Shown here one piece after another: positions 10,754 through 25,033 of a DNA stretch of 32,000 bases. Source of the stretch: Telmatocola sphagniphila (GTDB taxonomy: Bacteria; Planctomycetota; Planctomycetia; Gemmatales; Gemmataceae); NCBI RefSeq assembly GCF_018398935.1, contig NZ_CP074694.1, positions 1,080,001 to 1,112,000 of the forward strand, given 5' to 3'. A program made the position numbers and the translations under genes. Each line of letters begins with the position of its first letter. Within the stretch, counting starts at the first letter, position 1. Under the pieces are notes generated by a model, which saw only the letters and a program-made list of their open reading frames with translations, was not told the DNA's origin and ran no database searches.

Positions 10754-10800
10754 ATCGGGCCGATAGGATTTGAACCTACGACTTCTTGGTCCCAAACCAA
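10754..10800 (-). repeat. attL: duplicated 3' half of tRNA-Pro (anticodon stem to acceptor end)
   Basis: 10756-10800 is identical over 45 bp to 24961-25005 (47 bp if the preceding AT is counted). Sequence diverges immediately beyond. Confidence 0.9.
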
Positions 10801-10856: not shown

Positions 10857-10877
10857 GTTTGTACCCCTGTTTGTACC
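10857..10877 (+). promoter_or_regulatory. Tandem GTTTGTAC repeats (12-bp period), candidate integrase arm-type sites, attL side
   Basis: GTTTGTACCCCTGTTTGTACC here, GTTTGTACTCCCGTTTGTACT at 24786-24806. TGGTGAAAAT also shared (10891-10900 / 24724-24733). Confidence 0.45.
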
Positions 10878-10960: not shown

Positions 10961-11139
10961 GGAACGGGCGGGGGTGGGTGGCCCTAACTCGACAACCGAT
11001 CTGGTGTTCGGATGGAGTTCGCTCCGGACGGCTCGCCCTGGTGAAGCTTTCGCGGTTGCTACTTTTACGAGCATCACTTTAATTTCAGTCCGACGATCTC
11101 GCCAGTTTCCGGATTGAGCTACCCACCCCCGCCCGTTCC
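10961..11139. repeat. GC-motif module 1: inverted pair GGAACGGGCGGGGGTGGGTGGCCC (10961-10984) / GAGCTACCCACCCCCGCCCGTTCC (11116-11139)
   Basis: Arms are reverse complements apart from the outermost bases. CGCCCTGGTG at 11034-11043 lies between them. Confidence 0.85.
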
Positions 11140-11220
11140 ATCGTTGCCTATTGCCTAATCGCCGCCTTCGTTTCACAATAAGTTCAGTTTCTTCTCAATC
11201 ACACTTTCAGAGGCCCAACG

Positions 11221-12003
11221 ATGAAACCGCTCGCAATCGCTTCCCCTTTGCTCTTCCTGTTCGCATCGCTCGCCAGCGCCGAGAATCCGCCCGAATTCAA
11301 TTACAAGCTTTGTGAGAAACCAAATTATCTCTCCGAGTCCCACGGCAAAGAGATGATCCTGAAAGCCAAATTCAGAATCGGCCAGCCCGGTATCATCGCG
11401 GTTTACGAACGCAAGAACAAGAAAACGAATCGAGAGGATTACCCGGCCGAGATCCCGGTGAAGTTCTACAGCCCGGAAGCTGAAAAGAACTTTCGGGAAT
11501 CGATCATCGCCAGCAACAAAAGGAAAAAGGATCTGGTGGCCGAGCTGGTAGCGAAAGCGGATTTTTGCAAAGAGGATGAAGTTCTTTCGAAAGACTATGT
11601 TGTTCCGGATGCCCTCTTGCCCAAAGCCAGCATTACGCCTCGGTTTCAATCGCTTCAAAGTGGCTGGATGCGAATGCAGGAAGGCGCGGCCGAGTCCGAT
11701 GCAATCATGGAAAAGATCTTGGCGGATGCCCGGAAAAAGGGACAGACCGAAAAGCGAAAGTACTACGGTGCATTCGGTTTCGTTGATGCAAAAGTGAACG
11801 CAATCGCGCCGGAGAAGGAAGATAAGCCGATTGAGATTCCCACCGAGACGGCCGCGAGTTCGAAACTGTTTCTCGCGAAAGCCAAATTGCGGAACGATGC
11901 TGATAAAGCTGAAGGAATCAAAATCTTGAAAATGATTTTGGATCAGTACCCGGGAACCAAGGCAGCTAAGGAGGCCGCTGAGATCTTCGACGATTCAAAA
12001 TAA
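11221..12003 (+). CDS. Secreted hypothetical protein (260 aa), helical/TPR-like C-terminus
   Basis: Signal peptide MKPLAIASPLLFLFASLASA. Lys/Glu-rich. No family recognised. Confidence 0.6.
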   Translation: MKPLAIASPLLFLFASLASAENPPEFNYKLCEKPNYLSESHGKEMILKAKFRIGQPGIIAVYERKNKKTNREDYPAEIPVKFYSPEAEKNFRESIIASNKRKKDLVAELVAKADFCKEDEVLSKDYVVPDALLPKASITPRFQSLQSGWMRMQEGAAESDAIMEKILADARKKGQTEKRKYYGAFGFVDAKVNAIAPEKEDKPIEIPTETAASSKLFLAKAKLRNDADKAEGIKILKMILDQYPGTKAAKEAAEIFDDSK

Positions 12004-12028
12004 CCGGAGCAGGTTTCCAGTCCAGGCA

Positions 12029-13327
12029 TCAGGGCCCAATCGCCCCGCCTTGTCGCGCCGCCGCTTGAACCGCTCCGCCCATCACTTGAACAGTGGCATT
12101 GATTTCATCAAGAGTTTTTTGCATCTGATCCTGCTTCATGTCCTCAGCGCCTAACGACTTGTTGAGTCTCATCCATGTATCACTCAAGCTTTCGAACTGA
12201 ACCGAGCCTACGCGAGTAAAACCTTTGTTCCCGCCGTTGTCTTGCCGAGCTTTTTCCCTCTCTTTAAGTCCTGCAAGATAATTCGAAATGTCACGCAGAG
12301 GATTTTTGGATGTATCTACTCCGATCCCGTTTGCAAATCGGTTGGCCATATCCCCTAATCCTTTGATGTGAGAGATCCCACCGCCCTGAAGATCGGCATC
12401 CCAATTCTTCATTACCAAATCGAGCGTTCCGGGTTTCATAATTCCTAGATTTTCTCCCATCGCGGCCATTGTTGCAGCAATCGCGTTGGTAGCTTGTTTG
12501 TACTGCCGGACCATCCAATTCAATTTATCGATGACGAAGTTGACCGCTTTAGTTGCCCAATCCATGAGATGATCGGTCCAAGACTTGTTAGCGTCGTCCA
12601 TCGCGTTTGAAGTTTTTTCGGATTCAGTGTCGAAGAATCCGAACATATAAGCGCCGGCCGCAACGAGCCCCCCAATAGACGCAACTGCCAAACCTACCGG
12701 ACCTAAGAAAGCTGAACCGATAGCAACAGCCATCCCCCCAATTCCTTCCACCACCGCGAAGATTGCAGATCCCAAACCAACGAAAGAGCCGATGACCGTT
12801 GCGACGACAGAAGCAACCCCAGCGGCCGCGACAACGAATCCGGAAACCGCTGTAGCCATCACCACCCATTCCGTTGCCGCTTCGACGGTTGCCTTATCTA
12901 AACTTTGGAACCACTTCACAAAATCAATAACGGCATCGGTTGCCATTCGCACATACGGTGCCAGTGAGTCTCCAACCACTCTTGCAGCATATTCGAGAGC
13001 TGCCCCCAATTGCTGCATTTCAACCGTGCCAGCGCCCGCCTGAGACAAGATCCCGCCGATACCTAAAGTCCCGCCGAGTGTGAATTTGGATGCTGCCGAA
13101 GTGATGCTCGATATCGACTTGGAAACCGATTCGATAACCTGATTCGCCGAACGGCTGAAGGAAGCAACGGCCGCTTGCGATCTCGCGATTGCAGCCGCAA
13201 AGAGGTCTGCCGCTTTACTCGACTTGCCGAGCTTGCCGCCAATGCCGTCGATATCCGATTGTACTTTCGAAACTCCGTTGGTTACGAAGTCGACAGTCAT
13301 TTCCGCAAGTTGCTCTGAAGTCGCCAT
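12029..13327 (-). CDS. Phage tail tape-measure-like protein (432 aa; function tentative)
   Basis: Ala/Ser-rich coiled N-terminus. Central Gly-zipper hydrophobic block (VVAAAGVASVVATVIGSFVGLGSAIFAVVEGIGGMAVAIGSAFLGPVGLAVASIGGLVAAGA) typical of TMPs. Strong SD (GGAGGG) 5 nt upstream of the ATG. Confidence 0.5.
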   Translation of the reverse strand: MATSEQLAEMTVDFVTNGVSKVQSDIDGIGGKLGKSSKAADLFAAAIARSQAAVASFSRSANQVIESVSKSISSITSAASKFTLGGTLGIGGILSQAGAGTVEMQQLGAALEYAARVVGDSLAPYVRMATDAVIDFVKWFQSLDKATVEAATEWVVMATAVSGFVVAAAGVASVVATVIGSFVGLGSAIFAVVEGIGGMAVAIGSAFLGPVGLAVASIGGLVAAGAYMFGFFDTESEKTSNAMDDANKSWTDHLMDWATKAVNFVIDKLNWMVRQYKQATNAIAATMAAMGENLGIMKPGTLDLVMKNWDADLQGGGISHIKGLGDMANRFANGIGVDTSKNPLRDISNYLAGLKEREKARQDNGGNKGFTRVGSVQFESLSDTWMRLNKSLGAEDMKQDQMQKTLDEINATVQVMGGAVQAAARQGGAIGP

Positions 13328-13487
13328 GATTCCCTCCGGTGATTCGAAGTCTCTTTCACATTGGTTCCAACTGTAACAAGTTCGCCATAAATCCCCAAAC
13401 CGCCCGCCTGGTCAACCGGCCAAGGCGAGAGCATTGGTTCAAGTTTCGCCGCGATCAGCCGCCCTTGCTAGTCACCAGCTCGCACGG

Positions 13488-13721
13488 TTACTCTTCCGCG
13501 TCGAGAACCGATCCCATGAATTCTTGAAGAGCTTTAATCGATTCGGCGTCATTCCCGAAAATGCTATTCAGAAAGCTCAACCAGCTTTTGGGTTTGCCGC
13601 CAGTGGGCTCGTTAATCGGTCTGCACATGCTACTTTCCTTTTTAAAGTTACTTGTTAAAAGTTCGAAGTTTCTATCCCATGCCGAGCATCGCAGTGCGAG
13701 ATCGGCCAGATGTTGATTCAA
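13488..13721 (-). pseudogene. Fragment of a P4/D5-type primase-helicase (region just upstream of the P-loop)
   Basis: KSWLSFLNSIFGNDAESIKALQEFMGS aligns with EWIKFLQSIWPKDPEAIDTLQEVSGY of the 634-aa protein. The ORF stops before any Walker A. No P-loop in other frames downstream. Confidence 0.6.
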
Positions 13722-13821
13722 TCCCGTTTGCCACTTTGTCGCCTATCGCATTTCTGAATCCCTCCCATCGGTTGCTAGGTTGCTTTGGTCGATCTTTCAC
13801 GCCGGCCGCAAGAGCAATTCA

Positions 13822-13965
13822 CCGCGGGCGGGGTGGGTTGCCCTGATGGTATCCAGTTCGGTCTACCGGTCGCCTGGTGGTCGCCTGGTGAAGATCCGAT
13901 CACTCGCCGCCCGCTTCCCCCGTTTCCCCTGGTGTCTGGAGTGGGCCACCCACCCCCGCCCGTTC
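13822..13965. repeat. GC-motif module 2: CCGCGGGCGGGGTGGGTTGCCC (13822-13843) / GGGCCACCCACCCCCGCCCGTTC (13943-13965)
   Basis: Inverted pair. Tandem CGCCTGGTG at 13871-13879 and 13882-13890 lies between the arms. The right arm lies inside the 3' end of CDS 13900-14394. Confidence 0.85.
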
Positions 13966-14394
13966 ATCCGCCGATGTTTCACCCGACACCGGTTTCTTTC
14001 GCTCATCCACAAGCCCTAAATACTCACGGATCCGCTCCAGAGGTGGCAAGTGGATCCGCAGCCCTAGTAAATCGTCAATCGCTCGCTGGGCCATAATTCG
14101 GTCACGTGGCTTCGAGTTCGGATCGGAAATCACGGATGTATAGACGGCCAGCGATTCCGCACGTTGTTCCCGCCGAGCTTTCTGGATCTCCAGGACATTC
14201 CAATCGCGGGCGGTTCTTATCCAGCCCTGAATTGTCGAAGAGAAAATATCAGTACCAAATTTTTCGCGCACCTCCCGCTTGATTTCCTCCGTGGTGAAGT
14301 GCCGGCCGAGCATCGTTTGAACGAACTCAACACGCTCGCGAACTTGCTCCTGGTGAACAGCTCGCCTAGTCTTTTGGCCGTTGTCTTTTGCCAT
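13900..14394 (-). CDS. HTH protein, possibly terminase-small-subunit-like (tentative)
   Basis: 164-aa ORF. The pattern TTEEIKREVREKFG...STIQGWIRTARDW...KARREQRAESL...DRIMAQRAIDDLLGL resembles TerS-type N-terminal HTH plus helical oligomerisation region. The C-terminal 22 aa are encoded by GC-motif module 2. Confidence 0.45.
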   Translation of the reverse strand: MAKDNGQKTRRAVHQEQVRERVEFVQTMLGRHFTTEEIKREVREKFGTDIFSSTIQGWIRTARDWNVLEIQKARREQRAESLAVYTSVISDPNSKPRDRIMAQRAIDDLLGLRIHLPPLERIREYLGLVDERKKPVSGETSADERAGVGGPLQTPGETGEAGGE

Positions 14395-14478
14395 AAATCG
14401 CCGCCTTCAATTACCCTTCGCGCGCGTGAGGTATTCTGATCACAGTTGAACCGTCGCAACTCTCTCGATCCCAGGCAG

Positions 14479-14773
14479 ATTTTCAGCCCGCCAGAAGGCC
14501 CATTTTCAGCCCTCACAGATTCGTTTTGGTCCCATGGGTCCCATGTGGCCCCATGAATCCGAAAACCAGCTCAAATCCTGTGGCCGAGCTTCTAAGTACC
14601 GCTGAAGACAACCAAGCTAGGTGTCTAACTAATTAATTTTTGTTTTTCTCTACTTCATGGGTCCCATAGGACCAAACCTCAAAAGAGCAATTCTAAGTAC
14701 TGAAATAATCGGGGTTTACGCATGGCTCCATGAAGATCGTTCCATGAGGCCAATCATGGGGCCAAAAACGGTT
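14479..14773. promoter_or_regulatory. Iteron-rich, AT-centred intergenic region: candidate replication origin for the adjacent primase-helicase
   Basis: GGTCCCATG x2 and GGCCCCATG in tandem (14528-14555), GGTCCCAT (14660-14667), GGCTCCATG (14724-14732), inverted CATGGGGCC (14755-14763). ATTTTCAGCCC x2 (14479, 14502). TTCTAAGTAC x2 (14590, 14691). AT-rich core 14626-14655. Confidence 0.45.
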
Positions 14774-16678
14774 TCATGAGTCCTCAGATGGTTTGGCTAC
14801 CGGCTTACGAAGTCTAATTCCCTTAAAAAATTTCTTTCGTGTCTTTCCCTCGTCTATGAAATCGCCGTTTTTGGCCCCATCACTTTCGGGATCTGGGGCG
14901 TAAGTATCGCGAATAGTTTTGATCGCGTTGAAACACGATTTTAAATTGCGGCTGAAAAGGTTTCTTGGAAGAGGTTTGAGACCGGTTTTAATCGCGTATT
15001 CTTGCCATCGTAGGTAAACGTCAGCACAAGTTTCCGTTGCTTCTTTGTCGTCAATAAAGCAGTACTCTTCCACGAATTCAACAATCGGATTGGAGAGTGC
15101 TCTGAAGTCATCCATGTCATCCTGACCCGAACTCGGTTGTAGAAAATCCTTACCTTGTTCAATTCGTTCCTGAAGTCGTTTTAAGCCGTCCAAACTCCAC
15201 CAGAAAATAGAAGGAAGTTCCTTCAAAAGTTTCTCAGTTAAATAACGATCTTCACGCCCTAAAAATGAGGTTGTAGTTCGAAGCACAATGAATCTCGAAG
15301 CCAGCGCCAACGCCGAGTCGGGAAGCCGCGGCAGTTCATTGCTTGCGACTAAAATTCTCGCACCCAATCGCACTTCTTCGAGCGTACTCAAATACTTCCG
15401 CTCGATATCAATCGGATCGTCGCCGCTGATTGCCAGCAAACGATTCGTGATCAACTTGTCGTCGTAACGTCCGGAGATCCGCATATCGGGAAAAATAGCA
15501 AGCTTTTTGCCGATCCAGCCACTAAGCCCGAACGGGTTTGACAATTGGCTCATGCTCGATGCCAGGCAGTTGGAATGCCCCATCAGTGCTTGCAAGACCC
15601 GGCAGATTGTACTCTTTCCACTTCGAGGCGGACCTAAAAGAAAAAAGATCTTGTGGCATCGCGTTTGCCCGGACAAGAGATAGCCAGACACTTCCTGAAG
15701 AGTGTCGATTGCTTCTGGGTCCTTCGGCCAAATGGATTGAAGAAACTTTATCCATTCCGTTGGGTGAGACGATTCGATTCTAAAGTCACCAGTGAGAGCG
15801 TAATCGAGTTTGTGAAGGTTGAAAAAATCGGGTGACAATGGGGCTGGCTTCACTTCCTGACTCTTTAACAAATCGCTCAGCTTTAATAGGCCGTTTGAGA
15901 ACACGACGCAATCCGACATGTCTTGACCAGCTTTGGGGCCGCGAAGATAGCAGGGTGGTTCAATTTCTGAAGGTACTCTGGTTTTCGCACTAAGGGCTTG
16001 CATGGCCGATGAAATGTTATTCGTCGTTACTGGCGGCGGGGTGGGTGGTTCACCGTTGCCGGACCATGCCGCGATTTTCTTCTTGTACTCGGCTTCAATT
16101 AGTTTGTTGGCAACTTCCGTCAGCCGTGGTCGAAGATCTGAAACGGGTGTCAGTTTGTACCTTTCATCGGAGTAAATGTAAAATTGCTCCCTCCAATAAA
16201 CGACTTTATCCGTTCTTAGAAACTCGTTCGCAATCCTCATCGGATCATTTGGCTTGCGAAAAATCCCCCCGTTCTCTTTGAGATCTCTCTGGGCTTCTTC
16301 TCGCTTTTCTAAGTCCCGCTTCAGCGGATCTAGTGAGGGAGTAGTTCCCGCGATGTGTCCAAGAGAGTCTTCCAAAGATTTCAACATGTTCTCGGAGTGG
16401 CCACCCACCCCCGCCCGTTCATCCGCCGAGCTGGTGTTGTGAGGTGTAAGCGAGATTCCGTCCCCGGCAGCCGTGAATTGGGCGGGTGGGTTGCCATTCC
16501 CAAAGTTCGCCGTCTGATTTATTTTGCTCAGCATTCGAGCTAGAACGCGAGATCTGAAAGCAGAATCCGGATCGCTGCTACTTGAATTTGAATTTGACTT
16601 TGACTTTGTGTGTTCATCATGTACCATTAAATCGTCCTTTCCGTAGTCCGCGTTTGTTTTTCCGACTTGGCCACACAT
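14774..16678 (-). CDS. Phage/plasmid primase-helicase, P4-family C-terminal / D5-like SF3 NTPase
   Basis: 634 aa. W-x-x-FL...LQE-x-x-GY-LLSG motif followed by Walker A GPPRSGKST, then AIFPD and ILVASNE (SF3 motifs B and C). No obvious Toprim/AEP catalytic domain recognised in the N-terminus. Confidence 0.85.
   Translation of the reverse strand: MCGQVGKTNADYGKDDLMVHDEHTKSKSNSNSSSSDPDSAFRSRVLARMLSKINQTANFGNGNPPAQFTAAGDGISLTPHNTSSADERAGVGGHSENMLKSLEDSLGHIAGTTPSLDPLKRDLEKREEAQRDLKENGGIFRKPNDPMRIANEFLRTDKVVYWREQFYIYSDERYKLTPVSDLRPRLTEVANKLIEAEYKKKIAAWSGNGEPPTPPPVTTNNISSAMQALSAKTRVPSEIEPPCYLRGPKAGQDMSDCVVFSNGLLKLSDLLKSQEVKPAPLSPDFFNLHKLDYALTGDFRIESSHPTEWIKFLQSIWPKDPEAIDTLQEVSGYLLSGQTRCHKIFFLLGPPRSGKSTICRVLQALMGHSNCLASSMSQLSNPFGLSGWIGKKLAIFPDMRISGRYDDKLITNRLLAISGDDPIDIERKYLSTLEEVRLGARILVASNELPRLPDSALALASRFIVLRTTTSFLGREDRYLTEKLLKELPSIFWWSLDGLKRLQERIEQGKDFLQPSSGQDDMDDFRALSNPIVEFVEEYCFIDDKEATETCADVYLRWQEYAIKTGLKPLPRNLFSRNLKSCFNAIKTIRDTYAPDPESDGAKNGDFIDEGKTRKKFFKGIRLRKPVAKPSEDS
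16032..16050. repeat. Degenerate GC-motif copy (GGCGGCGGGGTGGGTGGTT)
   Basis: Reverse complement AACCACCCACCCCGCCGCC. Encodes EPPTPPPV within the primase-helicase. Weaker match than the other copies. Confidence 0.4.
16399..16495. repeat. GC-motif module 3: GGCCACCCACCCCCGCCCGTTC (16399-16420) / GAATTGGGCGGGTGGGTTGCC (16475-16495), wholly inside the primase-helicase CDS
   Basis: Inverted pair about 55 bp apart. Translated as ADERAGVGG and GNPPAQF. Confidence 0.8.
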
Positions 16679-16708
16679 TTGACCGATGTGTGGCCTTTTT
16701 TCGTTTTC

Positions 16709-18016
16709 CTAGGTGTTCCTTACTACTGCTGCAGCTCTATCGAGTAATCTCGGCCGCCACGGTTCCGACGTTGCCAATGTTTCGATATTCTTGGACCTCC
16801 CGATAAAGCCCCCGCGGGATTGCAGCCGCGCATGACCAGCCAGGGCCCATGCGAGGACTGCTTCCCGTTCACTCACGAGCCGTTTCAACAGTGACGGATC
16901 GTCTGGTAGTTCTTTTGTCGTTTTCACATGCGTGAACTTGTTGCCGAGATCTTGGCCAGGGCGAAACGGCTTGGTAAGAGTTTCCGCCACGATGATCATC
17001 TTCGTGCTCGATTTCGAGTTGCGTATCGTCGGCTTTCTATCGCTACTCGGAAGCAACGGTTTTCTCTCGATGGTCATGGGCCGATTCATGGAAAATTTGA
17101 TCAGGTTGTTAATGATCCGATTTCGCAGTGAGAAACTTTTCGGCATGTAAAAGTATTTGCAAAAAACCGCCATGTGTGGCTGCATGAATTCAAAGATCCA
17201 CGACTTACCCAGTTGGTCAACGAAGGGATAGCAAGCGTTTTCGTCGCCAAGAAGTATTCGAAGCATTCGGCAAATCAAGTCTGTGCTTGATTCCGGGCCT
17301 GTTAAAACAAACATGTTTCCGTAGCTGGTGTCACTGGTCAAAACGTAGCTGAAAAGCTCTTGAACTGTTTCCGCTGTGTTGCCATCGACGACGTGGCCGA
17401 GGGCTTCGAGCCAGGCTGGACATCTGCCAGACTTCAAATCTGGACTAACCCGGATGCCGTTCAGATTGAAGAGCCGCGGCCGCGTCGGGTTATCATTGGA
17501 GCAACCCACCCCCGCCCGATTCCCCTTCGAACTGGTGAACCGGCCGGATTCGATAGCTTCCTTCAACTCGTGCGGGTCGAATAGACCTTCCGATGTGACG
17601 ATCTTTTTGGAAAGGTCTATCCTGCTTTTAGTGCCGAGAAAAAACGGGGGTTCAAAAGTCCCGTCAACGTACGTTCTGACCATCAACGCATTTTTGACGG
17701 CATCCACGAGCCGCCGTTGAACTATTGGCTTTGTGAATTGAAACTCTGGATGACACTTCAGCTTCAATTCGAATTCCGCCTCGATAACATTATTGCTACA
17801 TGACGCTATCAATCCGGCCGCTTCAGAGTTGAGCATTTCCCGGTATCCAACTCTGTCGGGTTCTTGGATCCAAAAACTTCCCCGCCAGTAAACAAGCTGT
17901 TTGAATTCCCGGATAAAGTCCGCAATCTTTCCGGGTGGGGACCATGTTTTAATTGCGATAATCTGTTCTTTTTCCGCCGCTGCCACTGTTCCGTTCGTTC
18001 GTTTGTTCCCGACCAT
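16709..18016 (-). CDS. Degenerate paralogue of the primase-helicase lacking Walker A
   Basis: 435 aa. Shares VYWR..F.I and IEAE(F/Y) N-terminal blocks and the AWLEALG...VQELFSYVLTS motif. Has GPESSTD where the neighbour has GPPRSGKST. Confidence 0.75.
   Translation of the reverse strand: MVGNKRTNGTVAAAEKEQIIAIKTWSPPGKIADFIREFKQLVYWRGSFWIQEPDRVGYREMLNSEAAGLIASCSNNVIEAEFELKLKCHPEFQFTKPIVQRRLVDAVKNALMVRTYVDGTFEPPFFLGTKSRIDLSKKIVTSEGLFDPHELKEAIESGRFTSSKGNRAGVGCSNDNPTRPRLFNLNGIRVSPDLKSGRCPAWLEALGHVVDGNTAETVQELFSYVLTSDTSYGNMFVLTGPESSTDLICRMLRILLGDENACYPFVDQLGKSWIFEFMQPHMAVFCKYFYMPKSFSLRNRIINNLIKFSMNRPMTIERKPLLPSSDRKPTIRNSKSSTKMIIVAETLTKPFRPGQDLGNKFTHVKTTKELPDDPSLLKRLVSEREAVLAWALAGHARLQSRGGFIGRSKNIETLATSEPWRPRLLDRAAAVVRNT
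17499..17522. repeat. GC-motif copy GAGCAACCCACCCCCGCCCGATTC (single, inside CDS 16709-18016)
   Basis: 31 bp (17500-17530) identical to 18989-19019. Translated as GNRAGVGCS. Confidence 0.85.
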
Positions 18017-18019
18017 GTT

Positions 18020-18292
18020 TCACGTTGCCCTTTCCCGTTTATTAGTCCTTCGATGTGAGGACTGAACCGGCTTGCATCCGCGTTCAATCCAGTTGTGGAT
18101 TTCAGAGACTCGCCATCGTCGCATTCTGCCGATGTGAATTCCCTTGGGCATTTTCCCGGTATTCGCCATAAGCAGCACATGACGCCAATGACACTTCAGA
18201 ATCTCGGCCACTCCCTTTACATCGACCATGGCCGGGGTTTGAACGGTTTGCATTTGCCACCTACCTTTCATTAAGCGGGAACACTCTAACAC
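18020..18292 (-). CDS. Excisionase/AlpA-like HTH DNA-binding protein
   Basis: VDVKGVAEILKCHWRHVLLMANTGKMPKGIHIGRMRRWRVSEIHNWI fits the MerR-superfamily excisionase/AlpA pattern. Stop is 3 bp before the next gene's ATG. Start may be Met14 (18253). Confidence 0.7.
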   Translation of the reverse strand: MLECSRLMKGRWQMQTVQTPAMVDVKGVAEILKCHWRHVLLMANTGKMPKGIHIGRMRRWRVSEIHNWIERGCKPVQSSHRRTNKRERAT

Positions 18293-18371
18293 ATTGCGCC
18301 GCGATCACCAAACGGCGCAGGGGGGTTATGAAGTCTGAAGGTTTTCGAGGAATTATTGAGGCTTAGTAATC

Positions 18372-18393
18372 GTGCGGGCGGGGTGGGTAGCCC
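18372..18393. repeat. GC-motif copy GTGCGGGCGGGGTGGGTAGCCC (intergenic, between two HTH genes)
   Basis: Reverse complement GGGCTACCCACCCCGCCCGCAC. Confidence 0.8.
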
Positions 18394-18428
18394 AAAGGAT
18401 ACCGCGACGGAAAGAACTTCAGGAGAGC

Positions 18429-18713
18429 TTACGCTTCGACTCGCCCGCGCTTTCGAGATCGGACTGGCTTCGCGCCGGCCGCAATCCATTCTTTGAATTC
18501 GCCTAGATGCCAACGTCTCAACCCGCCGATCTTCAATCCAAATGGGATCTTCCCTTCGTCTGCCATCCGATACACTGTTCGCCAAGTGCATCCAAGTAGT
18601 GCGGCTATGTCGTTCACAGTGACGAGCTCGCCTGTGGATTTGGGAACGTTCGTTTCATTTGCTTTGCGGGGTGCGCGCAGAACTGTCGTCGTGGTCATTC
18701 TCTTGGACCTCAT
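18429..18713 (-). CDS. Excisionase/AlpA-like HTH DNA-binding protein (paralogue)
   Basis: LVTVNDIAALLGCTWRTVYRMADEGKIPFGLKIGGLRRWHLGEFKEWI. Confidence 0.7.
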   Translation of the reverse strand: MRSKRMTTTTVLRAPRKANETNVPKSTGELVTVNDIAALLGCTWRTVYRMADEGKIPFGLKIGGLRRWHLGEFKEWIAAGAKPVRSRKRGRVEA

Positions 18714-18988
18714 AAAAGATTGAAAGCGTTAGTTTCTTGGTCTGAATGATGGATTAAGAAAGGAGTGTAACAAATGGGGATTGATTCCCAAGTGATCCGC
18801 TCTAACGCTTCAGGGGATTTGGCTTATATGACGCCTAGATGAAACGTTGGAAGTATTATGATTATGAAGCTGACACGAGTCAAGTTTAGTTGTCGCAAAT
18901 TGACAATTTTCCGCATAGCGGACTGGGACACCTGTGTGGTGAATTGCTCTGGATGCTACCAGTCTGATCGGTTTCCGGGCTCGATGAT

Positions 18989-19122
18989 AGCAACCCACCC
19001 CCGCCCGATTCCCCTTCGACGGCTCGCCCTGGTGGTATCGGGTTGGTTCTGATCATCGCCCTGGTGGACACTGCCGCCCGGGGTGAGAAGTCACCAGCGA
19101 CGAACGGGGCGGGTGGGTAGCC
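18989..19122. repeat. GC-motif module 6: AGCAACCCACCCCCGCCCGATTC (18989-19011) / GAACGGGGCGGGTGGGTAGCC (19102-19122)
   Basis: Inverted pair. CGCCCTGGTG at 19025-19034 and 19067-19076, plus an inverted TCACCAGCGA at 19091-19100, lie between the arms. Confidence 0.85.
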
Positions 19123-19168
19123 TTGGGTCATCGGCACATGCGCGGCGCACGCGGGGATATCTCGCCAG

Positions 19169-19393
19169 TTACTGGCTTTTGGGCTTAAGGAATGGGATAG
19201 GTCTACCGATCTCTTCCAGCTCTTTGATCGCGGCTTTTCGAAGTTTCTCCCGCACCCATGCCGATAGTTCGACACCGGACACTTCTGCCGCCGACACAAA
19301 AGTTTCTTTTTCTTCGGGAGTCAAGCGGACCTGGAGCACTTCCGCCCGAGTTCGAAAAACTTTTGGCTTCTTAGATTCCGTCTTTTTCTTCAT
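19169..19393 (-). CDS. Ribbon-helix-helix DNA-binding protein (CopG/DUF1778-antitoxin-like or MobC-like)
   Basis: 74 aa. VLQVRLTPEEKETFVSAAEVSGVELSAWVREKLRKAA matches the RHH beta-strand plus two-helix pattern. Confidence 0.65.
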   Translation of the reverse strand: MKKKTESKKPKVFRTRAEVLQVRLTPEEKETFVSAAEVSGVELSAWVREKLRKAAIKELEEIGRPIPFLKPKSQ

Positions 19394-19399
19394 GGAATC

Positions 19400-19466
19400 A
19401 TTGTACTGCCATTGAAATGACAGTACTTAGGAATTTTCTTGACTGTACTGACAATGGCAGTACAAT
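19400..19466. promoter_or_regulatory. Divergent promoter/operator region with nested palindromes
   Basis: Perfect 15-bp inverted repeat ATTGTACTGCCATTG (19400-19414) / CAATGGCAGTACAAT (19452-19466). Four GTACTG half-sites form palindromes at 19403-19426 and 19445-19463. Plus-strand TTGACT (19439-19444)-N16-TACAAT (19461-19466). A mirrored TACAAT on the minus strand lies 6 bp upstream of the RHH ATG. Confidence 0.55.
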
Positions 19467-19555
19467 ACCCATAGTTACTGAAAAGAGCGAAGCCAGCCGA
19501 AGATTGCACCCTTCGACTGGCTTCTAACCCAAAAACTTGTTAGGAGTTTTCGAGT

Positions 19556-19792
19556 ATGGTCAACATTTTATCAACCAAATCCGCTTCGAGTAAGCTTCCC
19601 GTGGTTCTTCGACCGATCACCGCCGGCGAATTCGCTGTAGCCGTCGCCAATGACCTTGAAATTGGCCGGGTATGCGAACGCTCAACCGGGTGGTCTGCAA
19701 TCGGTTTGAGGGGCTATATCGGCATGTTCTCGTGCCAAGCCGCGGCTGTTGCAGCACTGGCCCTGAAGATCTCCGTCGATTCCCCTTTCTAA
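19556..19792 (+). CDS. Hypothetical protein (78 aa)
   Basis: ORF downstream of the plus-strand promoter. No family recognised. Confidence 0.35.
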   Translation: MVNILSTKSASSKLPVVLRPITAGEFAVAVANDLEIGRVCERSTGWSAIGLRGYIGMFSCQAAAVAALALKISVDSPF

Positions 19793-19836
19793 TCAACCCA
19801 TCATTCGCCCACTCTTCTTAATCCACCGTACATCCA

Positions 19837-21141
19837 ATGAGAACCACAATGCATACTTACACTCGCACCAATTGGCTGAAAGAACCAACCGCACTTCTGC
19901 GTTACCTTACCCGCCAGAATGTTTTCCGGCTTCTCGATCCTTACGAGTTTGCCAAAGGTCGAACCGCTCAAGAATTTTGGGACGATGCGGAATACGAATA
20001 TCTTCTTACCGGTCTTTTGCGTGTCGCGGACGTTCGAAGGGAAGGCCCGTTGCCCTGGAAACACTACGCGGAAGCTTCCATAGCGGTCTGTGAGCTTGCC
20101 CTGACTTATTTCGCTAACGATCTGGTCCCGGGTGTCGAAACGCTCCAACTGGCGAAAAAATATCTTGTAACGCCTACTCGGGCTCTGGGTAAAAAGATTG
20201 CTCGTAACGCGGTTTTTTTGGCAGATTCCGACCATGACCACGGCGGAAAATTGCTTCTCAAATCGACTGCAAGCTTGCATGAGGCGATTGCGTATGCATC
20301 TTTCTGCACGCTCCGCAGTTCAATCCAACTCTCCCATGCGGAACGACGTTCGCTTTCCGAAGTGGAACAATTCAAACTGAATGAACTTCTCGGCAAGTCT
20401 TATGCATTATTACCCATTGAACGTCGTTCGACTTTGATCTGCCATGAGCCGGCATTCAATTTGCCAATCCAATTAATGAGCGAAGTTTTTGGATTCTGTA
20501 ATGATGCATTCGATGATCGATCCGCAATATTATTCGAATCAAAAGCATGCCAGATTATACGAGATTTAATCCCATGTCCCTGGCACGAAGACAGAGATCA
20601 AGAGGAATTTGAGAAACACAATCGATTTGTAAAGCATCTGGAATTCATAGATGTTAAAAAATCCACTATCGAAAAGCTCACGCGCACGATACCAGTAGTC
20701 ACATGGAATCAAGATGAGTCTTTAGCTCAGTTTCTGGAATGGTCCGTCAGATCGCTCTGGTATCAGGATTCCGATCTTTGCAAAAGCAAATTGAATGAAG
20801 CTTTCGAAGGATCGTTGAATTTCTTTAAAAAAAATCAGCATTTGTCTGACGAATGCATTTCCATTTGCAGATACATCGCTGAAGGCTTTTCGGAAGCAGA
20901 ATCAGTTGAATCTTTGTTGGCGAGTGCGGCCACGATCAAAAAGGTAATGGTCCCTGTCTACGAAAAACTGAAGCTCGAAACGACTGCTAGCAATGGTAAG
21001 TACGGTTACAAACCGGACTACAAAAAATGTTGCGAAAATCTCTTGGTTCGAACCTTGAGAAATCGCCTACCTATCCCGTGGACTGAATGCCCTATCCCAG
21101 CGTCCGCCGAAATCGAACAACTGAGAGAATTGGCGGCTTAA
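19837..21141 (+). CDS. Hypothetical protein (434 aa), island cargo of unknown function
   Basis: Long ORF, predicted mostly helical. Recurrent P-C/I-P-W motifs (LIPCPWHEDRD, LPIPWTECPIP). GC falls to about 37-43% over 20400-20640 by hand count. Confidence 0.7.
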   Translation: MRTTMHTYTRTNWLKEPTALLRYLTRQNVFRLLDPYEFAKGRTAQEFWDDAEYEYLLTGLLRVADVRREGPLPWKHYAEASIAVCELALTYFANDLVPGVETLQLAKKYLVTPTRALGKKIARNAVFLADSDHDHGGKLLLKSTASLHEAIAYASFCTLRSSIQLSHAERRSLSEVEQFKLNELLGKSYALLPIERRSTLICHEPAFNLPIQLMSEVFGFCNDAFDDRSAILFESKACQIIRDLIPCPWHEDRDQEEFEKHNRFVKHLEFIDVKKSTIEKLTRTIPVVTWNQDESLAQFLEWSVRSLWYQDSDLCKSKLNEAFEGSLNFFKKNQHLSDECISICRYIAEGFSEAESVESLLASAATIKKVMVPVYEKLKLETTASNGKYGYKPDYKKCCENLLVRTLRNRLPIPWTECPIPASAEIEQLRELAA

Positions 21142-21200
21142 TCGAGCCGATGCCTTCGTTTACTCGCCCGTTTTTTATTCAGAAAGTGAGATTAGATCCC

Positions 21201-21443
21201 ATGGCCAATGAATCGGAACCAAAGTACGTCACGGCGGCGGAAGTCGCCAAGCAACTGAAAGTGTCGGTAATCGCCGTTCATCGCTGGATGACCCACGGGA
21301 AAAAGGGGATAGTCCTACCCGCGATCAAGCCAGGAAGAGTTTGGTTGACCACTCAGAAATGGCTGGATGAATGGGCCAAGAAAGTTACGCCGGGGATGCC
21401 CATGCAATTTGGAAGTCGTACTGAGAGTTATCATGCCAGCTAA
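21201..21443 (+). CDS. Excisionase/AlpA-like HTH DNA-binding protein
   Basis: YVTAAEVAKQLKVSVIAVHRWMTHGKKGIVLPAIKPGRVWLTTQKWLDEW. Overlaps the integrase start by 11 bp. Confidence 0.65.
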   Translation: MANESEPKYVTAAEVAKQLKVSVIAVHRWMTHGKKGIVLPAIKPGRVWLTTQKWLDEWAKKVTPGMPMQFGSRTESYHAS

Positions 21444-22512
21444 AACGAACTTCCCAAAATTGAGGTTCTTGAAATCCCGTGGGGTGTACTCCTATTACCA
21501 CGACGGCCGGAGATTCTACCTAGGACGCGATTACGACAAAGCACTTGAACTGCACCGAGCCGCAATCCTTCGAATCAATTCCAACATTGCGAATCCTGCC
21601 CCCATACGAAAAACTGACCTGTTAATTTCGGAAGCGGTTCAGTTTTACTTGGAGGGCCCGGTAAGCAAAATGGGCAAATCCGATGCCCACCGCAATTTCT
21701 TTGCGATTAAGACACTGGTGTTGTACTGCGGAGCGATGCCCGCCGAGTCGTTCCGAGTCCAGCACGTTGAGCATATCACAAATGAATTCTGCAAAATGCG
21801 TGCTCGAACGCGAACCTACAAGAGCAACGTCTGTGACGGTCGCCCATACAGCCGACAGTACGTTACCAAACTTCTAGGCTGCATCCGGCAATGCTGGCGA
21901 TATCTGGCCCTGCATGATTACGTAAGTGCGGATTGTGCGGCGAAAGTCACTCTGGCCGTGCGAGCGGCGAAAAAGAACGCATCTCCGAGTTTGCCACCCA
22001 CCCGCCCCGTCTCAGCTGAAGCCGTGCGAGCTACTGTGCAATTTCTTCCGCCCGCGATCGCGGACATGGTAAGCGTTCAGATTGCTACCGGTATGCGAAC
22101 CGGCGAGCTGGTGAGCATGACTTGGGAAGCTATCGACAGTTCGGGCTCAACATGGATTTACGCCCCGCCAAAGCACAAGAACTCCTGGAGGGGACACCAG
22201 CGTCGAATCTACCTGCCTGATGAACTTCAGGAGATCTTGCGGAAGTATCCGAATGCTGGGGCAGGTCAAACACTTTGGGGAGTACCGTTTGATCGATACT
22301 ATCGGCACCTTCGAACGGCTCAAGAAAAGGCAGGGGTAGAACCTTGGAGACCGTACCAGCTCCGACACGCGGCCGCTACTGAGATCCTGAAACGGAAAGG
22401 GGCAGAAGCGGCGAAGTTTCTACTGGGACACGCGGGGGGTGGGTTGCTCAAGCTGTACACCGGGAGCGAACCGGAGAATATGTCACGTTCGGGCAAACTA
22501 AATGCCGTCTGA
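21433..22512 (+). CDS. Tyrosine recombinase / integrase 1 (~359 aa)
   Basis: GMRTGELVSMTW (Arg I), YQLRHAAATE (H-x-x-R), LLGHAGGGLLKLY (His/Tyr box). Start taken at Met 21433 rather than ORF start 21367. Confidence 0.85.
   Translation: MPAKTNFPKLRFLKSRGVYSYYHDGRRFYLGRDYDKALELHRAAILRINSNIANPAPIRKTDLLISEAVQFYLEGPVSKMGKSDAHRNFFAIKTLVLYCGAMPAESFRVQHVEHITNEFCKMRARTRTYKSNVCDGRPYSRQYVTKLLGCIRQCWRYLALHDYVSADCAAKVTLAVRAAKKNASPSLPPTRPVSAEAVRATVQFLPPAIADMVSVQIATGMRTGELVSMTWEAIDSSGSTWIYAPPKHKNSWRGHQRRIYLPDELQEILRKYPNAGAGQTLWGVPFDRYYRHLRTAQEKAGVEPWRPYQLRHAAATEILKRKGAEAAKFLLGHAGGGLLKLYTGSEPENMSRSGKLNAV
21991..22011. repeat. GC-motif variant TTGCCACCCACCCGCCCCGTC inside integrase 1
   Basis: Encodes LPPTRPV. 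Variant with CCCGCCCC order. Confidence 0.55.
22431..22449. repeat. GC-motif variant CGCGGGGGGTGGGTTGCTC inside integrase 1 (His/Tyr box)
   Basis: Reverse complement GAGCAACCCACCCCCCGCG. Encodes HAGGGLL. Confidence 0.5.
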
Positions 22513-22564
22513 TCACGGGCGGGTATCCACTTCGAACGAAGACAATCAACGAAAAGGAACCACG

Positions 22565-22855
22565 ATGGAAGAAAGATTAATTGAAGAGGGTTTGCTTTCA
22601 CTTCAGGAAGTTGCTCGGCGCTGTGGAGTATCGCCCGGGATGCTCTGGCGTCTCTGCAAGCAAGGGAAGCTGGAATGTGTACGAACATCAGCTAACGGCC
22701 GATGGTTGACCAGTTTGAAAGCAGTAACGCGGTACCTGGCAGGGGTAAAAGCAGACATGGCCTCCGTGAAGACTGCGAATGAAATGGATATCGAACAACG
22801 GGCGGCTATTGCAACTGCGAAAGCGCTGGCGATGTGTGAGCGGAAAAAACGTTGA
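22565..22855 (+). CDS. Excisionase/AlpA-like HTH DNA-binding protein
   Basis: LLSLQEVARRCGVSPGMLWRLCKQGKLECVRTSANGRWLTSLKAVTRYL. Start at Met 22565. Confidence 0.65.
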   Translation: MEERLIEEGLLSLQEVARRCGVSPGMLWRLCKQGKLECVRTSANGRWLTSLKAVTRYLAGVKADMASVKTANEMDIEQRAAIATAKALAMCERKKR

Positions 22856-22864
22856 CCAGCGGCA

Positions 22865-23157
22865 GACGGCGGGGCGGGGGTGGGTAGCTCAAAATCAACG
22901 CAATCGTCTCACATATCACCGGATCCGTCTCAATCTTCCTCCCCATCGTCTCAACAAGTCAATCGGATTGCACCGCACTTCAATGCGGCGGACGTTTGCC
23001 GAGCTGGTAGACGAACGGCAGCGAAGATCCTTTCTGGCTCATCAGCGTCGTTTATCGGGCGATTAGGGCGGGCTCGAGGGAATCCGCTTTCCTTGTTCCG
23101 TTCGCCTTCCCCCGGTCCGCCCTGGTGAGTTTTAGGGCTACCCACCCCCGCCCGTTC
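22865..23157. repeat. GC-motif module 8: GACGGCGGGGCGGGGGTGGGTAGCTC (22865-22890) / GGGCTACCCACCCCCGCCCGTTC (23135-23157)
   Basis: Inverted pair about 245 bp apart. CGCCCTGGTG at 23118-23127 is immediately inside the right arm. Confidence 0.85.
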
Positions 23158-23321
23158 ATCGCCATGCCTTTTTTCTCACTTCACCCTTTCAGCCGTCCAC
23201 CATTTCCACCCGCATTGATTAACTCAATCTGTGCAATTATAATTCCGATGACCTTTGGGCCGGGCGATGCGGGGAACTGGAAAGCCCCCTCGCCAGGTCC
23301 GCTTTCCAGAAAGGTCTCTGC

Positions 23322-24755
23322 ATGGGTTCCATTTTCAAACAGACTACGTGGAAGTCCGTTCCACCCGAAGCGAACATCATCACTCGCGACGGGAAGCGTT
23401 TCGCGGTCTGGATTCAGAACGGCAAAAAACGAAAAGAAGAAGTCCGAACGGTTCAGACTGGCAAAGACAAAGGCCAGTTTCGAATCTGCATTTTTTCAAA
23501 GCACTGGTACGCCAAATATCGAGACAGCTCCAATCTAGTCGTTGTTACGTGCACTGAATGCAAGGACGAAGCCAACGCGCGAAAGGAACTCGAAAAATAC
23601 GAACGGCAAGCGGAACGGGTTCGAAAAGGGATTATCACGCCGGCTGAAGAGAAGCTGGAGAAGCAAACGCCTAAGCCTATCGCCGAGCACTTCGACGCGT
23701 TTGAACACTATTTGAGATCCAAGGAAGTTACGAAGGTTCACCGCGAGAACTCCAGGCGGTATCTAAATCGGCTCGCGGAAGAATGCAGCTTTGTTACATT
23801 GCTCAGCATGCGGCGAGAATCCTTCGAGAAGTGGCTGGCCAATCGAATCGTCGACGGCATGTCGGCACGTTCGCGGAACGCCCACCGGGAAGCGCTGAAC
23901 GCGTTTTGCAACTGGTGTGTTGCTACTGAAAGGTTACTCGATAACCCTTTCCGATTGGTCCGGAAAGCTAACGAAGACGCGGATCCTCGAAGGCAGCGGC
24001 GAGCCATGACAGCGGAAGAGCTGCGGCGGTTGCTCCAGGTGGCGAAAGAGCGGCCGCTGAAGGAAGCTTTGATGATCCGCCGCGGCGAGCGAAAAGGGCA
24101 ACTGGCCGCGAATGTGTCTGACGAACTGAAAGTCAGGCTGGAGCAAATAGGACGGGAAAGGGCACTGATCTACAAAACTTTGGTTCTGACCGGTCTGCGC
24201 CGTGGCGAGCTGGCTTCTCTGACCGTGGCGAAATTGTCCCTGGCGGGTTCTTCCCCTCATGCCTACCTCGATGCGGCAGACGAAAAGAATCGAACAGGTA
24301 GTGTAATCCCCATTCGTGACGATCTGGCGGATGATCTGCGGCACTGGCTGGCGGACAAGCTTCGAGCCCTTCAAGATCTGGCCCGGGCCCGCGGCGAGTC
24401 AATCCCTCGCGAATTGCCTGCTCAGACGAAACTCTTTGCGGTACCAGCTCAGATGATCCGAACTTTCGACCGAGATTTAAAAGCAGCGGGCATCCCCAAA
24501 GTAGATGATCGCGGCCGGACCTTGGACGTTCATGCCATGCGTACCACGTTCGGAACTCTGCTCAGCAAGGCAGGGGTTTCCCCTCGAACGGCACAAGCGG
24601 CCATGCGTCACTCAGATATTTCTCTGACGATGAACACATACACCGATCCGAAATTGTTGGACGTTCGCGGAGCGCTGGACGGACTGCCGGAGCTTTCTTT
24701 GAGCAACCCACCCCCGCCCGTCCTGGTGAAAATTTCCGCCCGGGAAACGGCTTGA
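23322..24755 (+). CDS. Tyrosine recombinase / integrase 2 (477 aa), adjacent to attR
   Basis: LTGLRRGELASLTV (Arg I), HAMRTTFGTLL (H-x-x-R), AMRHSDISLTMNTYTD (His/Tyr). Long N-terminal arm-binding/SAM-like region. Confidence 0.9.
   Translation: MGSIFKQTTWKSVPPEANIITRDGKRFAVWIQNGKKRKEEVRTVQTGKDKGQFRICIFSKHWYAKYRDSSNLVVVTCTECKDEANARKELEKYERQAERVRKGIITPAEEKLEKQTPKPIAEHFDAFEHYLRSKEVTKVHRENSRRYLNRLAEECSFVTLLSMRRESFEKWLANRIVDGMSARSRNAHREALNAFCNWCVATERLLDNPFRLVRKANEDADPRRQRRAMTAEELRRLLQVAKERPLKEALMIRRGERKGQLAANVSDELKVRLEQIGRERALIYKTLVLTGLRRGELASLTVAKLSLAGSSPHAYLDAADEKNRTGSVIPIRDDLADDLRHWLADKLRALQDLARARGESIPRELPAQTKLFAVPAQMIRTFDRDLKAAGIPKVDDRGRTLDVHAMRTTFGTLLSKAGVSPRTAQAAMRHSDISLTMNTYTDPKLLDVRGALDGLPELSLSNPPPPVLVKISARETA
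24701..24723. repeat. GC-motif copy GAGCAACCCACCCCCGCCCGTCC at the 3' end of integrase 2
   Basis: Encodes LSNPPPPV. Runs directly into CGTCCTGGTG / TGGTGAAAAT. Confidence 0.85.
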
Positions 24756-24785: not shown

Positions 24786-24806
24786 GTTTGTACTCCCGTT
24801 TGTACT
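24786..24806 (+). promoter_or_regulatory. Tandem GTTTGTAC repeats (12-bp period), candidate integrase arm-type sites, attR side
   Basis: GTTTGTACTCCCGTTTGTACT. Partner at 10857-10877. Confidence 0.45.
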
Positions 24807-24959
24807 AAAAGCGGACAGCGATAAGACAAATTAGACAACCAGAACGTCAAGGAAGGTAAACGGCCAAGCCGGGCTTACTGGGTGGGATGAGTGACGAAAA
24901 CCAAGGGATTCATAGAGTGAAACGGTTTTTTACTGGGCGAGAAGAACGGAAGAGAAAAA

Positions 24960-25033
24960 TCGGGCCGATAGGATTTGAACCTACGACTTCTTGGTCCCAA
25001 ACCAAGCGCTCTACCAAACTGAGCTACGGCCCG
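24960..25033 (-). tRNA. tRNA-Pro (anticodon UGG)
   Basis: Reverse complement folds as a cloverleaf: acceptor CGGGCCG/CGGCCCG, D stem GCTC/GAGC, anticodon stem CTTGG/CCAAG with loop TTTGGGA, T arm GTAGG-TTCAAAT-CCTAT, discriminator A. No encoded CCA. Confidence 0.95.

Follow-up and report, generated by a model that had tools for sequence, protein, structure and literature searches.

Why does one short G-rich sequence recur within genes of a Telmatocola sphagniphila mobile element, and in the same reading frame in three of them? The question was raised by a 32,000-nt stretch of the chromosome (assembly GCF_018398935.1, contig NZ_CP074694.1, positions 1,080,001 to 1,112,000; hereafter the window, numbered from its first letter). 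The original prediction, made from the letters alone, had noted the peptide RAGVG in three minus-strand open reading frames (ORFs) of 164, 634 and 435 amino acids, and had proposed either an in-frame colonisation of genes like that by Rickettsia palindromic elements (RPEs) or recombination joints at which gene segments are exchanged. We found that the sequence belongs to a set of 16 copies of a DNA motif, all located within a 14.2-kb element integrated at a tRNA-Pro gene, and we read the RAGVG and proline-run peptides as by-products of this DNA-level feature, which makes the protein view secondary. The feature proved to be real and specific to the element, and it was not found elsewhere in the collections searched.

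The motif GGGTGGGTDGC (full form GAACGGGCGGGGGTGGGTDGCYC) occurs 16 times in the window, where 0.92 occurrences are expected, and its core GGGTGGGT is found eight times on each strand; beyond these copies there is one chance match with a single mismatch, at 29192, outside the element. All 16 copies fall within 10962-24723, between the two att repeats that bound the element, and none in the 17.7 kb of flanking chromosome contained in the window (binomial P=2.4e-6). The 15-mer CGGGCGGGGGTGGGT has ten matches with up to three mismatches compared with 0.87 expected. Alignment of the copies gave the consensus GAACGGGCGGGGGTGGGT-D-GCYC with an invariant core GGGTGGGT-D-GC, in which position 9 is G, A or T and never C, and positions 10 and 11 are G in 16/16 and C in 15/16 copies, while the flanks diverge. 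The full 5' half is kept in nine copies and the G-run is shortened or altered by one or two bases in the other seven; subfamilies have up to 31-45 nt in common. In a position-weight scan of the whole window the copies scored 20.2-34.1 bits and the next independent match 13.5 bits, a gap which indicates that decayed intermediate copies are absent.

The copies nearly alternate between strands along the element (14 runs in 16 sites; permutation runs test P=0.009). Five close inverted pairs are formed by copies 1/2, 3/4, 6/7, 10/11 and 14/15, with mostly unrelated spacers of 81-262 nt, and six copies have no partner inside 360 nt. Half of the copies are strictly intergenic, although non-ORF DNA makes up just 22% (P=0.013), and four more lie in unconserved ORF termini. 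There is no stop codon in the motif in any of the six frames. Within the block of minus-strand genes, G-rich copies of full length (4, 6, 8, 10) alternate strictly with shortened ones whose RNA reading is C-rich (3, 5, 7, 9, 11), an arrangement expected by chance in 1/126 cases, but the split of full and short forms by strand fails in the remainder of the element. In the excised circle, copies 16 and 1 would bracket attP. Copies 12, 13 and 14 (21996, 22437 and 22878) are spaced by exactly 441 nt twice over, possibly by coincidence.

At the protein level, what had been read from the sequence was present as described. According to the six-frame ORF list, CGGGCGGGGGTGGGT encodes RAGVG in the 164-aa ORF (motif peptide ...SADERAGVGGPLQ; C-terminus ...GETSADERAGVGGPLQTPGETGEAGGE), in the 634-aa ORF (...SADERAGVGGHSE, its motif peptides being ...FGNGNPPAQFTAAG..., ...NTSSADERAGVGGHSEN... 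and ...NGEPPTPPPVTT...) and in the 435-aa ORF (...SSKGNRAGVGCSNDN..., with GNRAGVGCSND). The complementary form yields the proline runs GNPPAQF and EPPTPPPV in the 634-aa ORF, LSNPPPPV in integrase 2 (C-terminus ...LSLSNPPPPVLVKISARETA) and LPPTRPV in integrase 1 (within SLPPTRPVS), and the inverted-pair module at 16399-16495 sits in the open 634-aa frame, which encodes a primase-helicase, without breaking it. The frame common to the three copies is weak evidence and not statistically notable: because one frame of the extended repeat TCGGCGGATGAACGGG... is closed by a TGA, copies 4 and 6 have two open frames each, and the chance of a three-fold RAGVG coincidence is about 1/6. The sense-strand G-rich copies are read three times in the RAGVG frame and once in the GGG frame (HAGGGLL of integrase 1), and the four C-rich copies split two against two.

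Comparison with motif-free homologues upheld the idea of RPE-like insertion for one copy only. In the 435-aa paralogue of the primase-helicase about 22 residues (ESGRFTSSKGNRAGVGCSNDN, including NRAGVGC) are extra relative to both the 634-aa protein and a 16-sequence family profile, and they fall in a loop whose length varies across the family. By contrast, EPPTPPPV, LPPTRPV and HAGGGLL replace homologous residues without adding any, and the tail of the 164-aa protein, in a region that is variable in all aligned homologues, likewise appears to be a replacement. EPPTPPPV (residues 210-217) aligns gap-free to W-x-G-x-G-x-P-P-x-V-[RK]-P-V-T, column for column with GEPPRVKPVT in the closest homologues. 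In alignments of integrase 1 to XerD, LPPTRPV is the usual interdomain linker and AGGGLLKL (from HAGGGLLKL) fills the standard 8-residue spacer from the LLGH histidine to the catalytic tyrosine. These copies are set without indels at positions that the proteins tolerate, and in one case normally conserved residues are overwritten.

Structure prediction showed disorder for some of the motif-encoded segments. An AlphaFold2 model of the 634-aa protein (72 sequences, mean predicted local distance difference test score, pLDDT, 82.7) places GNPPAQF and SADERAGVGG within an unstructured and unconserved N-terminal extension, whereas EPPTPPPV is a confidently modelled coil between two helices. This extension has no homologues: the best primase-helicase homologue is 36% identical, the homologue alignment starts at about residue 140, and over residues ~1-116, where conservation is lacking, the model is of low confidence apart from one helix (38-56), with pLDDT <50 at residues 1-37, 58-99 and 106-116. 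Its codon log-likelihood (+0.04 in the ORF frame vs -0.19 to -0.33 in the other frames) weakly favours translation and is not decisive. A hairpin at 16669-16695 (11-bp GC-rich stem, then T6 on the plus strand) contains the first ATG of the 634-aa ORF, which makes this ATG doubtful as the true start; in the public gene call the protein begins at M18 (P0001, 617 aa).

The two other RAGVG proteins differ in their relatives. For the 164-aa protein we retrieved 360 homologues that share residues ~15-120, and the C-terminal tails were rich in Gly, Pro, Ala and Glu and variable in 29/29 aligned homologues. Its closest homologue (P0122; 55% identity by phmmer, 59% by BLASTP) is encoded by a gene followed by a TerL ORF (phrog_38, E=1.7e-16), and the 164-aa protein is therefore TerS-like. 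Besides the window proteins and a fusion protein described below, RAGVG, AGVGG or GVGGP was found in only one retrieved protein from elsewhere (P0216), a match that we take as chance in a low-complexity tail. The 435-aa paralogue, which has lost both Walker A and, in the motif after it, the conserved D/R, has no homologue except its neighbour among 5.8 billion proteins and is probably an inactive or decaying copy. A third primase-helicase remnant at 13494-13658 on the minus strand matches residues 295-338 of the 634-aa protein (E=1.6e-4) and lies between copy 3 and a tape-measure-like gene.

The junction expected of a deletion between the copies at 13943 and 16399, which the original prediction had described as direct repeats sharing about 36 bp, is present in another assembly. 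The repeats are identical over 31 nt (13944-13974 = 16399-16429, family D3) and share 37 nt with one indel. A 459-bp contig (L120) of assembly GCA_024510185.1, about 99% identical to the window, matches window 16763-16394 over its positions 1-371 (98.9% identity, 3 single-nucleotide polymorphisms) and window 13974-13850 over positions 335-459 (100%), the overlap being the shared repeat; the polymorphisms show that it comes from a different strain. The interval absent from it contains most of the 164-aa gene, an ori-like region and the primase-helicase core. Across the junction runs an in-frame 107-aa fusion ORF (P0123), retrieved by a search with the 164-aa protein, in which 92 residues from the N-terminus of the 634-aa ORF, with one L-to-F change, are followed by the final 15 of the 164-aa protein. 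The junction is that expected from recombination between direct copies 6 and 4, giving direct but limited support to such an event, which may have been a deletion or an insertion; no other part of this strain's element is on record. The junction supports the proposal of recombination joints but not, by itself, a productive exchange of gene segments. Two Logan contigs of the same strain run colinear with the window, L121 through copies 11-16 and L122 through copies 12-13, and no inversion heterogeneity is seen there. A second direct pair of identical 31-nt repeats, with the same motif-relative boundaries as in copies 4 and 6, is formed by copies 8 and 10 (17500-17530 / 18989-19019); it flanks 1489 bp in which lie both small helix-turn-helix (HTH) genes and, of the 435-aa ORF, the N-terminal part. 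A deletion of this interval is predicted, but none was found.

Other cis-acting functions of the element have repeats of their own. Doublets of GTTTGTAC with 12-nt spacing are present in both att arms (10857/10869 and 24786/24798, spanning 10857-10876 and 24786-24805), with six matches in the window compared with 0.36 expected, and are likely, as a prediction, to be arm-type binding sites of integrase 2. Iterons of the type GGNCCCATG at 14528-14763 lie directly 3' of the primase-helicase gene, forming an ori-like region in which seven GGNCC(N)CATG-type repeats flank a stretch of 62% A+T; several of 80 related primase loci also have clustered repeats of their own (e.g. ATCYTGTGCCA) at the equivalent position. 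Since both places are taken up by these repeats, the G-rich motif is neither an origin iteron nor an arm-type site, for which the GTTTGTAC doublets are the better candidate, 13 motif copies being far from att. A G-quadruplex was rejected by inspection: most copies have just three G3 tracts, which rules out a canonical quadruplex as a general property.

We tentatively favour, with somewhat less than even confidence, the reading that the motif is a selected, element-specific site recognised by a trans-acting factor, and that its copies also act as recombination substrates. Selection for recognition is suggested by an invariant core beside a freely varying base, the absence of decayed copies, indel-free placement in linkers and even in the His-to-Tyr spacer of an integrase, and the bias towards gene boundaries; the reading draws further on the restriction to the element, the nearly alternating strands, the separate repeats for other cis functions and the recombination of copies 4 and 6. 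We infer that a protein binds the site, most likely a sequence-specific DNA-binding protein encoded by the element itself. Candidates would be the four HTH_17/AlpA-like proteins, a 434-aa protein with a weak LuxR-type HTH, the TerS-like protein and the second integrase. Once bound, the sites might work as operators, roadblocks or architectural elements, dispersed so as to bracket the modules of the element, namely attP, rep-ori, the regulator genes and int, and in coding DNA a site would survive only if the protein tolerates a Gly- or Pro-rich peptide at that place. Their role as recombination substrates would be a side effect, and recombination of direct copies 4 and 6 would have led to loss of the replication module in another sample, leaving the in-frame fusion ORF.

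Several observations weigh against recognition by a trans-acting factor. No binding protein was identified, and copy orientation does not follow the direction of transcription, unlike that of phage stoperators; all full-form copies of the minus-strand block are co-oriented with transcription, but only there. Promoter-like matches in the element numbered 6 vs 10.2 in shuffled sequences, so that no link to promoters emerged. Comparative support is absent, since a comparable dispersed motif was found neither in any of 80 related primase-helicase loci nor in the genome with a 36%-identical primase homologue (L118), and scans of the genome, viral and metagenome collections turned up no further clustered locus. 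Genome contigs gave 26 single matches in high-GC genomes, which is the chance level, viral contigs gave single matches only, L051 having seven GGGTGGGT without extended similarity, and the metagenomes gave two single matches. The restriction to the element is shown for this window out of a 6.59-Mb genome, and the deletion junction comes from a single short contig of a very fragmented assembly. Moreover, if a transposase or recombinase mobilised the repeat, its ends would be expected just as much to have a conserved core. Two further observations were made in these collections. Three short contigs (L006, L011 and L026) of the unrelated, high-GC Actinomycetota metagenome-assembled genome JALYMU01 each end at the 19-nt pattern ACGGGCGGGGGTGGGTDGC, and a repeat of that genome's own containing this string seems to break its assembly. 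Contig L118 carries an inverted repeat (19984-20122; 50 nt, GC-rich, 92% complementary, spacer of 39 nt) whose sequence is unrelated to the motif in the window.

A selfish or neutral short repeat of the miniature inverted-repeat transposable element (MITE), REPIN or RPE type, spread through the element by transposition, gene conversion or illegitimate recombination and persisting where it is harmless, even in frame inside genes, would account for the layout in inverted pairs, for subfamilies with 20-31 nt in common (families D3 and D8; pairs I3 and I19) and for the intergenic enrichment. The ~66-nt unit that lies in frame in a variable-length loop of the 435-aa paralogue, with 31 nt identical to copy 10, points the same way, and in-frame RPE insertions are a precedent (PMC10969869). 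We nevertheless consider this explanation unlikely, as just 11-31 nt are conserved, pair interiors differ in length and sequence, no target-site duplications were seen on inspection of the pairs, a transposase or RAYT (REP-associated tyrosine transposase) gene is absent from the element, neither copies in the 17.7-kb flanks nor decayed copies occur, and four ORF copies replace residues instead of being inserted; this evidence against a purely selfish repeat is not decisive. Somewhat less probable, in our view, are dedicated shufflon- or cassette-like sites for a tyrosine recombinase, plausibly integrase 1, with in-frame sites that spare the ORFs. The asymmetric and nearly alternating copies, some of them inside ORFs in a shared frame, would suit such a system, as would a second integrase without obvious role, primase and HTH remnants or paralogues that abut copies (the fragment at 13494-13658 and the duplicated HTH genes), and a presence/absence polymorphism that ends exactly at two direct copies and leaves an in-frame fusion; the Rci recombinase acts on asymmetric sfx sites (PMC11852207). 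However, the sole variant is a deletion between direct repeats, for which short-homology recombination is sufficient, and systems of the Rci type are more inclined to invert DNA between reverse-oriented sites than to delete it between same-oriented ones (PMC11850598). The unbroken same-strain contigs, a site without a dyad-symmetric core, two integrases far below every specific family cut-off and predicted fusions without evident function also speak against it.

It is improbable, though conceivable, that the repeat is a translation-neutral recombination linker: free of stops, flexible through Gly and Pro and read in a common frame, it would allow recombination between copies to swap, delete or insert modules while ORFs stay intact, and the second integrase might be the catalyst. 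If this were true, the element would offer a bacterial analogue of exon shuffling, and the 2455-bp rep-ori-TerS module between identical 31-nt copies would be a mobile cassette. Slighter still is the prospect of an RNA-level motif in which G-rich and C-rich copies of one transcript pair with one another or with a processed small RNA, or form long processing or termination hairpins. The CI-RNA immunity of P4, with its seqA/B/C pairing, is an analogue. The primase belongs to the P4 family, the arms of close pairs do pair in minimum-energy folds, and the strict alternation of full and short copies in the minus-strand block would fit; but fold z-scores are modest (-1.0 to -2.95 vs shuffles), nothing other than the tRNA matches Rfam, it is the absolute sequence that is conserved rather than covariation between arms, and six copies are partnerless and the strand split of forms fails elsewhere. 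Finally, the shared residues could be ordinary protein sequence, alike by chance or as conserved protein motifs. Homologues do have Pro-rich linkers at the EPPTPPPV and LPPTRPV positions and Gly/Pro-rich tails in the 164-aa family, but nucleotide identity over 15-31 nt between unrelated positions is far beyond chance, the peptides recur in a single outside protein among those retrieved, and half of the copies are intergenic, which effectively refutes this very improbable explanation.

How does the motif compare with known systems? Phage P1 has dispersed asymmetric C1 operators. In cluster A mycobacteriophages, the nearest precedent, dispersed asymmetric sites are bound by the monomeric two-domain repressor described for L5 (PMC9283540). 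These operators and stoperators resemble our motif in that a single short, asymmetric site recurs many times throughout a mobile genome, between and inside genes, and the enrichment between genes is also found here. Stoperators, however, are oriented with transcription, whereas the present sites nearly alternate between strands with many inverted pairs 81-262 nt apart, and are G-rich and longer (11-23 nt) with no cognate repressor identified. RPEs share the in-frame placement inside genes that stay unbroken, most closely in the extra loop segment of the 435-aa paralogue, but they are units of ~150 bp conserved end to end and scattered over many unrelated chromosomal genes (PMC10969869). In the window no ~100-150-bp unit is conserved throughout; 11-31 nt are conserved, every copy lies in a single 14-kb element, half of them between genes, and four of those in ORFs are replacements. 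Bertels and Rainey are reported to have described in 2011 repetitive extragenic palindromic (REP) sequences, which are themselves palindromes, number in the hundreds across a genome and require a RAYT transposase. REPINs (REP doublets forming hairpins), bacterial interspersed mosaic elements and MITEs (reviewed in PMC10969869) are similar in having inverted doublets of a short repeat around a spacer, mostly between genes, but a palindromic unit, hundreds of genome-wide copies and RAYT were not seen in the window, nor were terminal inverted repeats with target-site duplications and a conserved interior. The R64-type shufflon (Rci, sfx; PMC11852207, PMC5430464) likewise has short asymmetric opposed repeats, some in reading frames, next to a tyrosine recombinase gene; in contrast, alternative exon segments are absent here, sites extend over the whole element, the sole variant seen is a deletion between direct copies, and inversion heterogeneity was absent over copies 11-16. 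Integron attC sites were rejected: integron-integrase models scored 22-25 bits vs cut-offs of 265-435, and the pair ends ...CCCGTTC do not match GTTRRRY (attC cores RYYYAAC/GTTRRRY).

The element itself is P4-like and satellite-like, integrated at tRNA-Pro, and looks like a partly decayed composite satellite or island. It encodes two tyrosine integrases, four HTH_17/AlpA-like proteins (90, 94, 117 and 118 aa) of which two are paralogues, a NikA-like ribbon-helix-helix protein, a tape-measure-like fragment, a 260-aa gene product and the 434-aa protein, and its primase genes comprise the P4-family primase-helicase, the degenerate paralogue and the third fragment. A boundary between tandem elements was rejected, as a third att copy is absent. 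Against profile models neither integrase comes near any specific family cut-off. Integrase 1, with 31.6 bits vs a 220-bit cut-off for the best NCBIfam model, is a generic tyrosine recombinase and has no att site of its own; a second integrase is without obvious role, and integrase 2 has no homologues in viral contigs. The likeness to integrative satellites of the P4 or phage-inducible chromosomal island type lies in the tRNA-site tyrosine integrase, the AlpA-like HTH genes, the TerS-like gene and the iterons that come after a P4-family primase-helicase, and the differences in the dispersed element-wide motif and the decayed duplicate modules added here. Two other repeats were noted in the element. 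A 25-nt inverted repeat at 19400-19466 (84% complementary, 17-nt spacer) lies in the divergent 443-nt region between the NikA-like and 434-aa genes, overlaps a promoter-like match and is predicted to be a likely operator of the element's switch region. The sequence (CG)CCCTGGTG occurs nine times on the plus strand of the element and never on the minus strand (11037, 13873, 13884, 13928, 14349, 19028, 19060, 23121 and 24722); most of its copies are within or adjoining G-motif pairs whatever the gene direction, and it resembles Chi of Escherichia coli. Coordinates are collected in Table 1.

Table 1. Features of the integrated element, in window coordinates; the core column gives the position of GGGTGGGT in each motif copy, and PWM is the position-weight matrix score
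Feature	Coordinates	Strand	Core	Remarks
attL	10754..10800			47-nt copy of tRNA-Pro 3' end; left boundary of element; 100% direct repeat of 24959-25005
Copy 1	10962..10984	+	10972	full form; intergenic; inverted pair with copy 2; PWM 34.1 bits
Copy 2	11116..11138	-	11121	full form; intergenic; 82 nt upstream of 260-aa gene; PWM 34.0 bits
Copy 3	13821..13843	+	13831	short G-run variant; intergenic; inverted pair with copy 4; PWM 26.0 bits
164-aa protein	13900..14394	-		TerS-like by synteny of closest homologue
Copy 4	13943..13965	-	13948	full; C-terminal tail of 164-aa TerS-like protein (ERAGVGGP); right end of 2455-bp polymorphic segment
Polymorphic segment	13975..16429			2455 bp, absent from contig L120; flanked by 31-nt direct repeats 13944-13974 and 16399-16429
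634-aa P4-family primase-helicase ORF	14774..16678	-		DUF5906, Pox_D5, TIGR01613
Copy 5	16029..16051	+	16039	variant; encodes EPPTPPPV in confidently modelled primase-helicase linker; not an insertion
Copy 6	16398..16420	-	16403	full; disordered N-terminal extension of 634-aa ORF (ERAGVGGH); left end of polymorphic segment
Copy 7	16474..16496	+	16484	short variant; GNPPAQF in N-terminal extension of 634-aa ORF; inverted pair with copy 6
435-aa degenerate primase-helicase paralogue	16709..18016	-		Walker A lost (GPESSTD for GPPRSGKS)
Copy 8	17499..17521	-	17504	full; in ~22-aa insertion (NRAGVGC) in variable loop of 435-aa paralogue; 31 nt identical to copy 10
Copy 9	18371..18393	+	18381	short variant; intergenic, between two paralogous HTH_17 genes
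Copy 10	18988..19010	-	18993	full form; intergenic; inverted pair with copy 11
Copy 11	19101..19123	+	19111	short variant; intergenic
Copy 12	21991..22013	-	21996	short variant; LPPTRPV in interdomain linker of integrase 1
Copy 13	22427..22449	+	22437	variant; HAGGGLLKL, conserved His to catalytic Tyr of integrase 1; 53 nt upstream of next HTH gene
Copy 14	22868..22890	+	22878	full form; intergenic; inverted pair with copy 15
Copy 15	23135..23157	-	23140	full form; intergenic; 165 nt upstream of integrase 2
Copy 16	24701..24723	-	24706	full; SNPPPPV in C-terminal tail of integrase 2, past catalytic Tyr
tRNA-Pro(tgg)	24960..25033	-		ARAGORN; Rfam tRNA 72 bits; 3' 47 nt = attR, right boundary

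In conclusion, short motifs spread across a mobile element usually mark control circuitry, and the known cases are few and mostly from well-studied phages; the motif described here would be an example from a poorly studied element, one that is probably planctomycetal to judge by the organisms in which primase homologues occur. Its unusual features are the layout in inverted pairs, the copies at linker positions within coding sequence and a natural deletion between copies that removes the replication module. In annotation, RAGVG and the proline runs should not be taken for a protein motif. Should a binding protein come to light, the element would provide a compact model of a cis-acting DNA code and protein-coding constraints acting on the same bases, and would show how such repeats drive the modular rearrangement of satellites.

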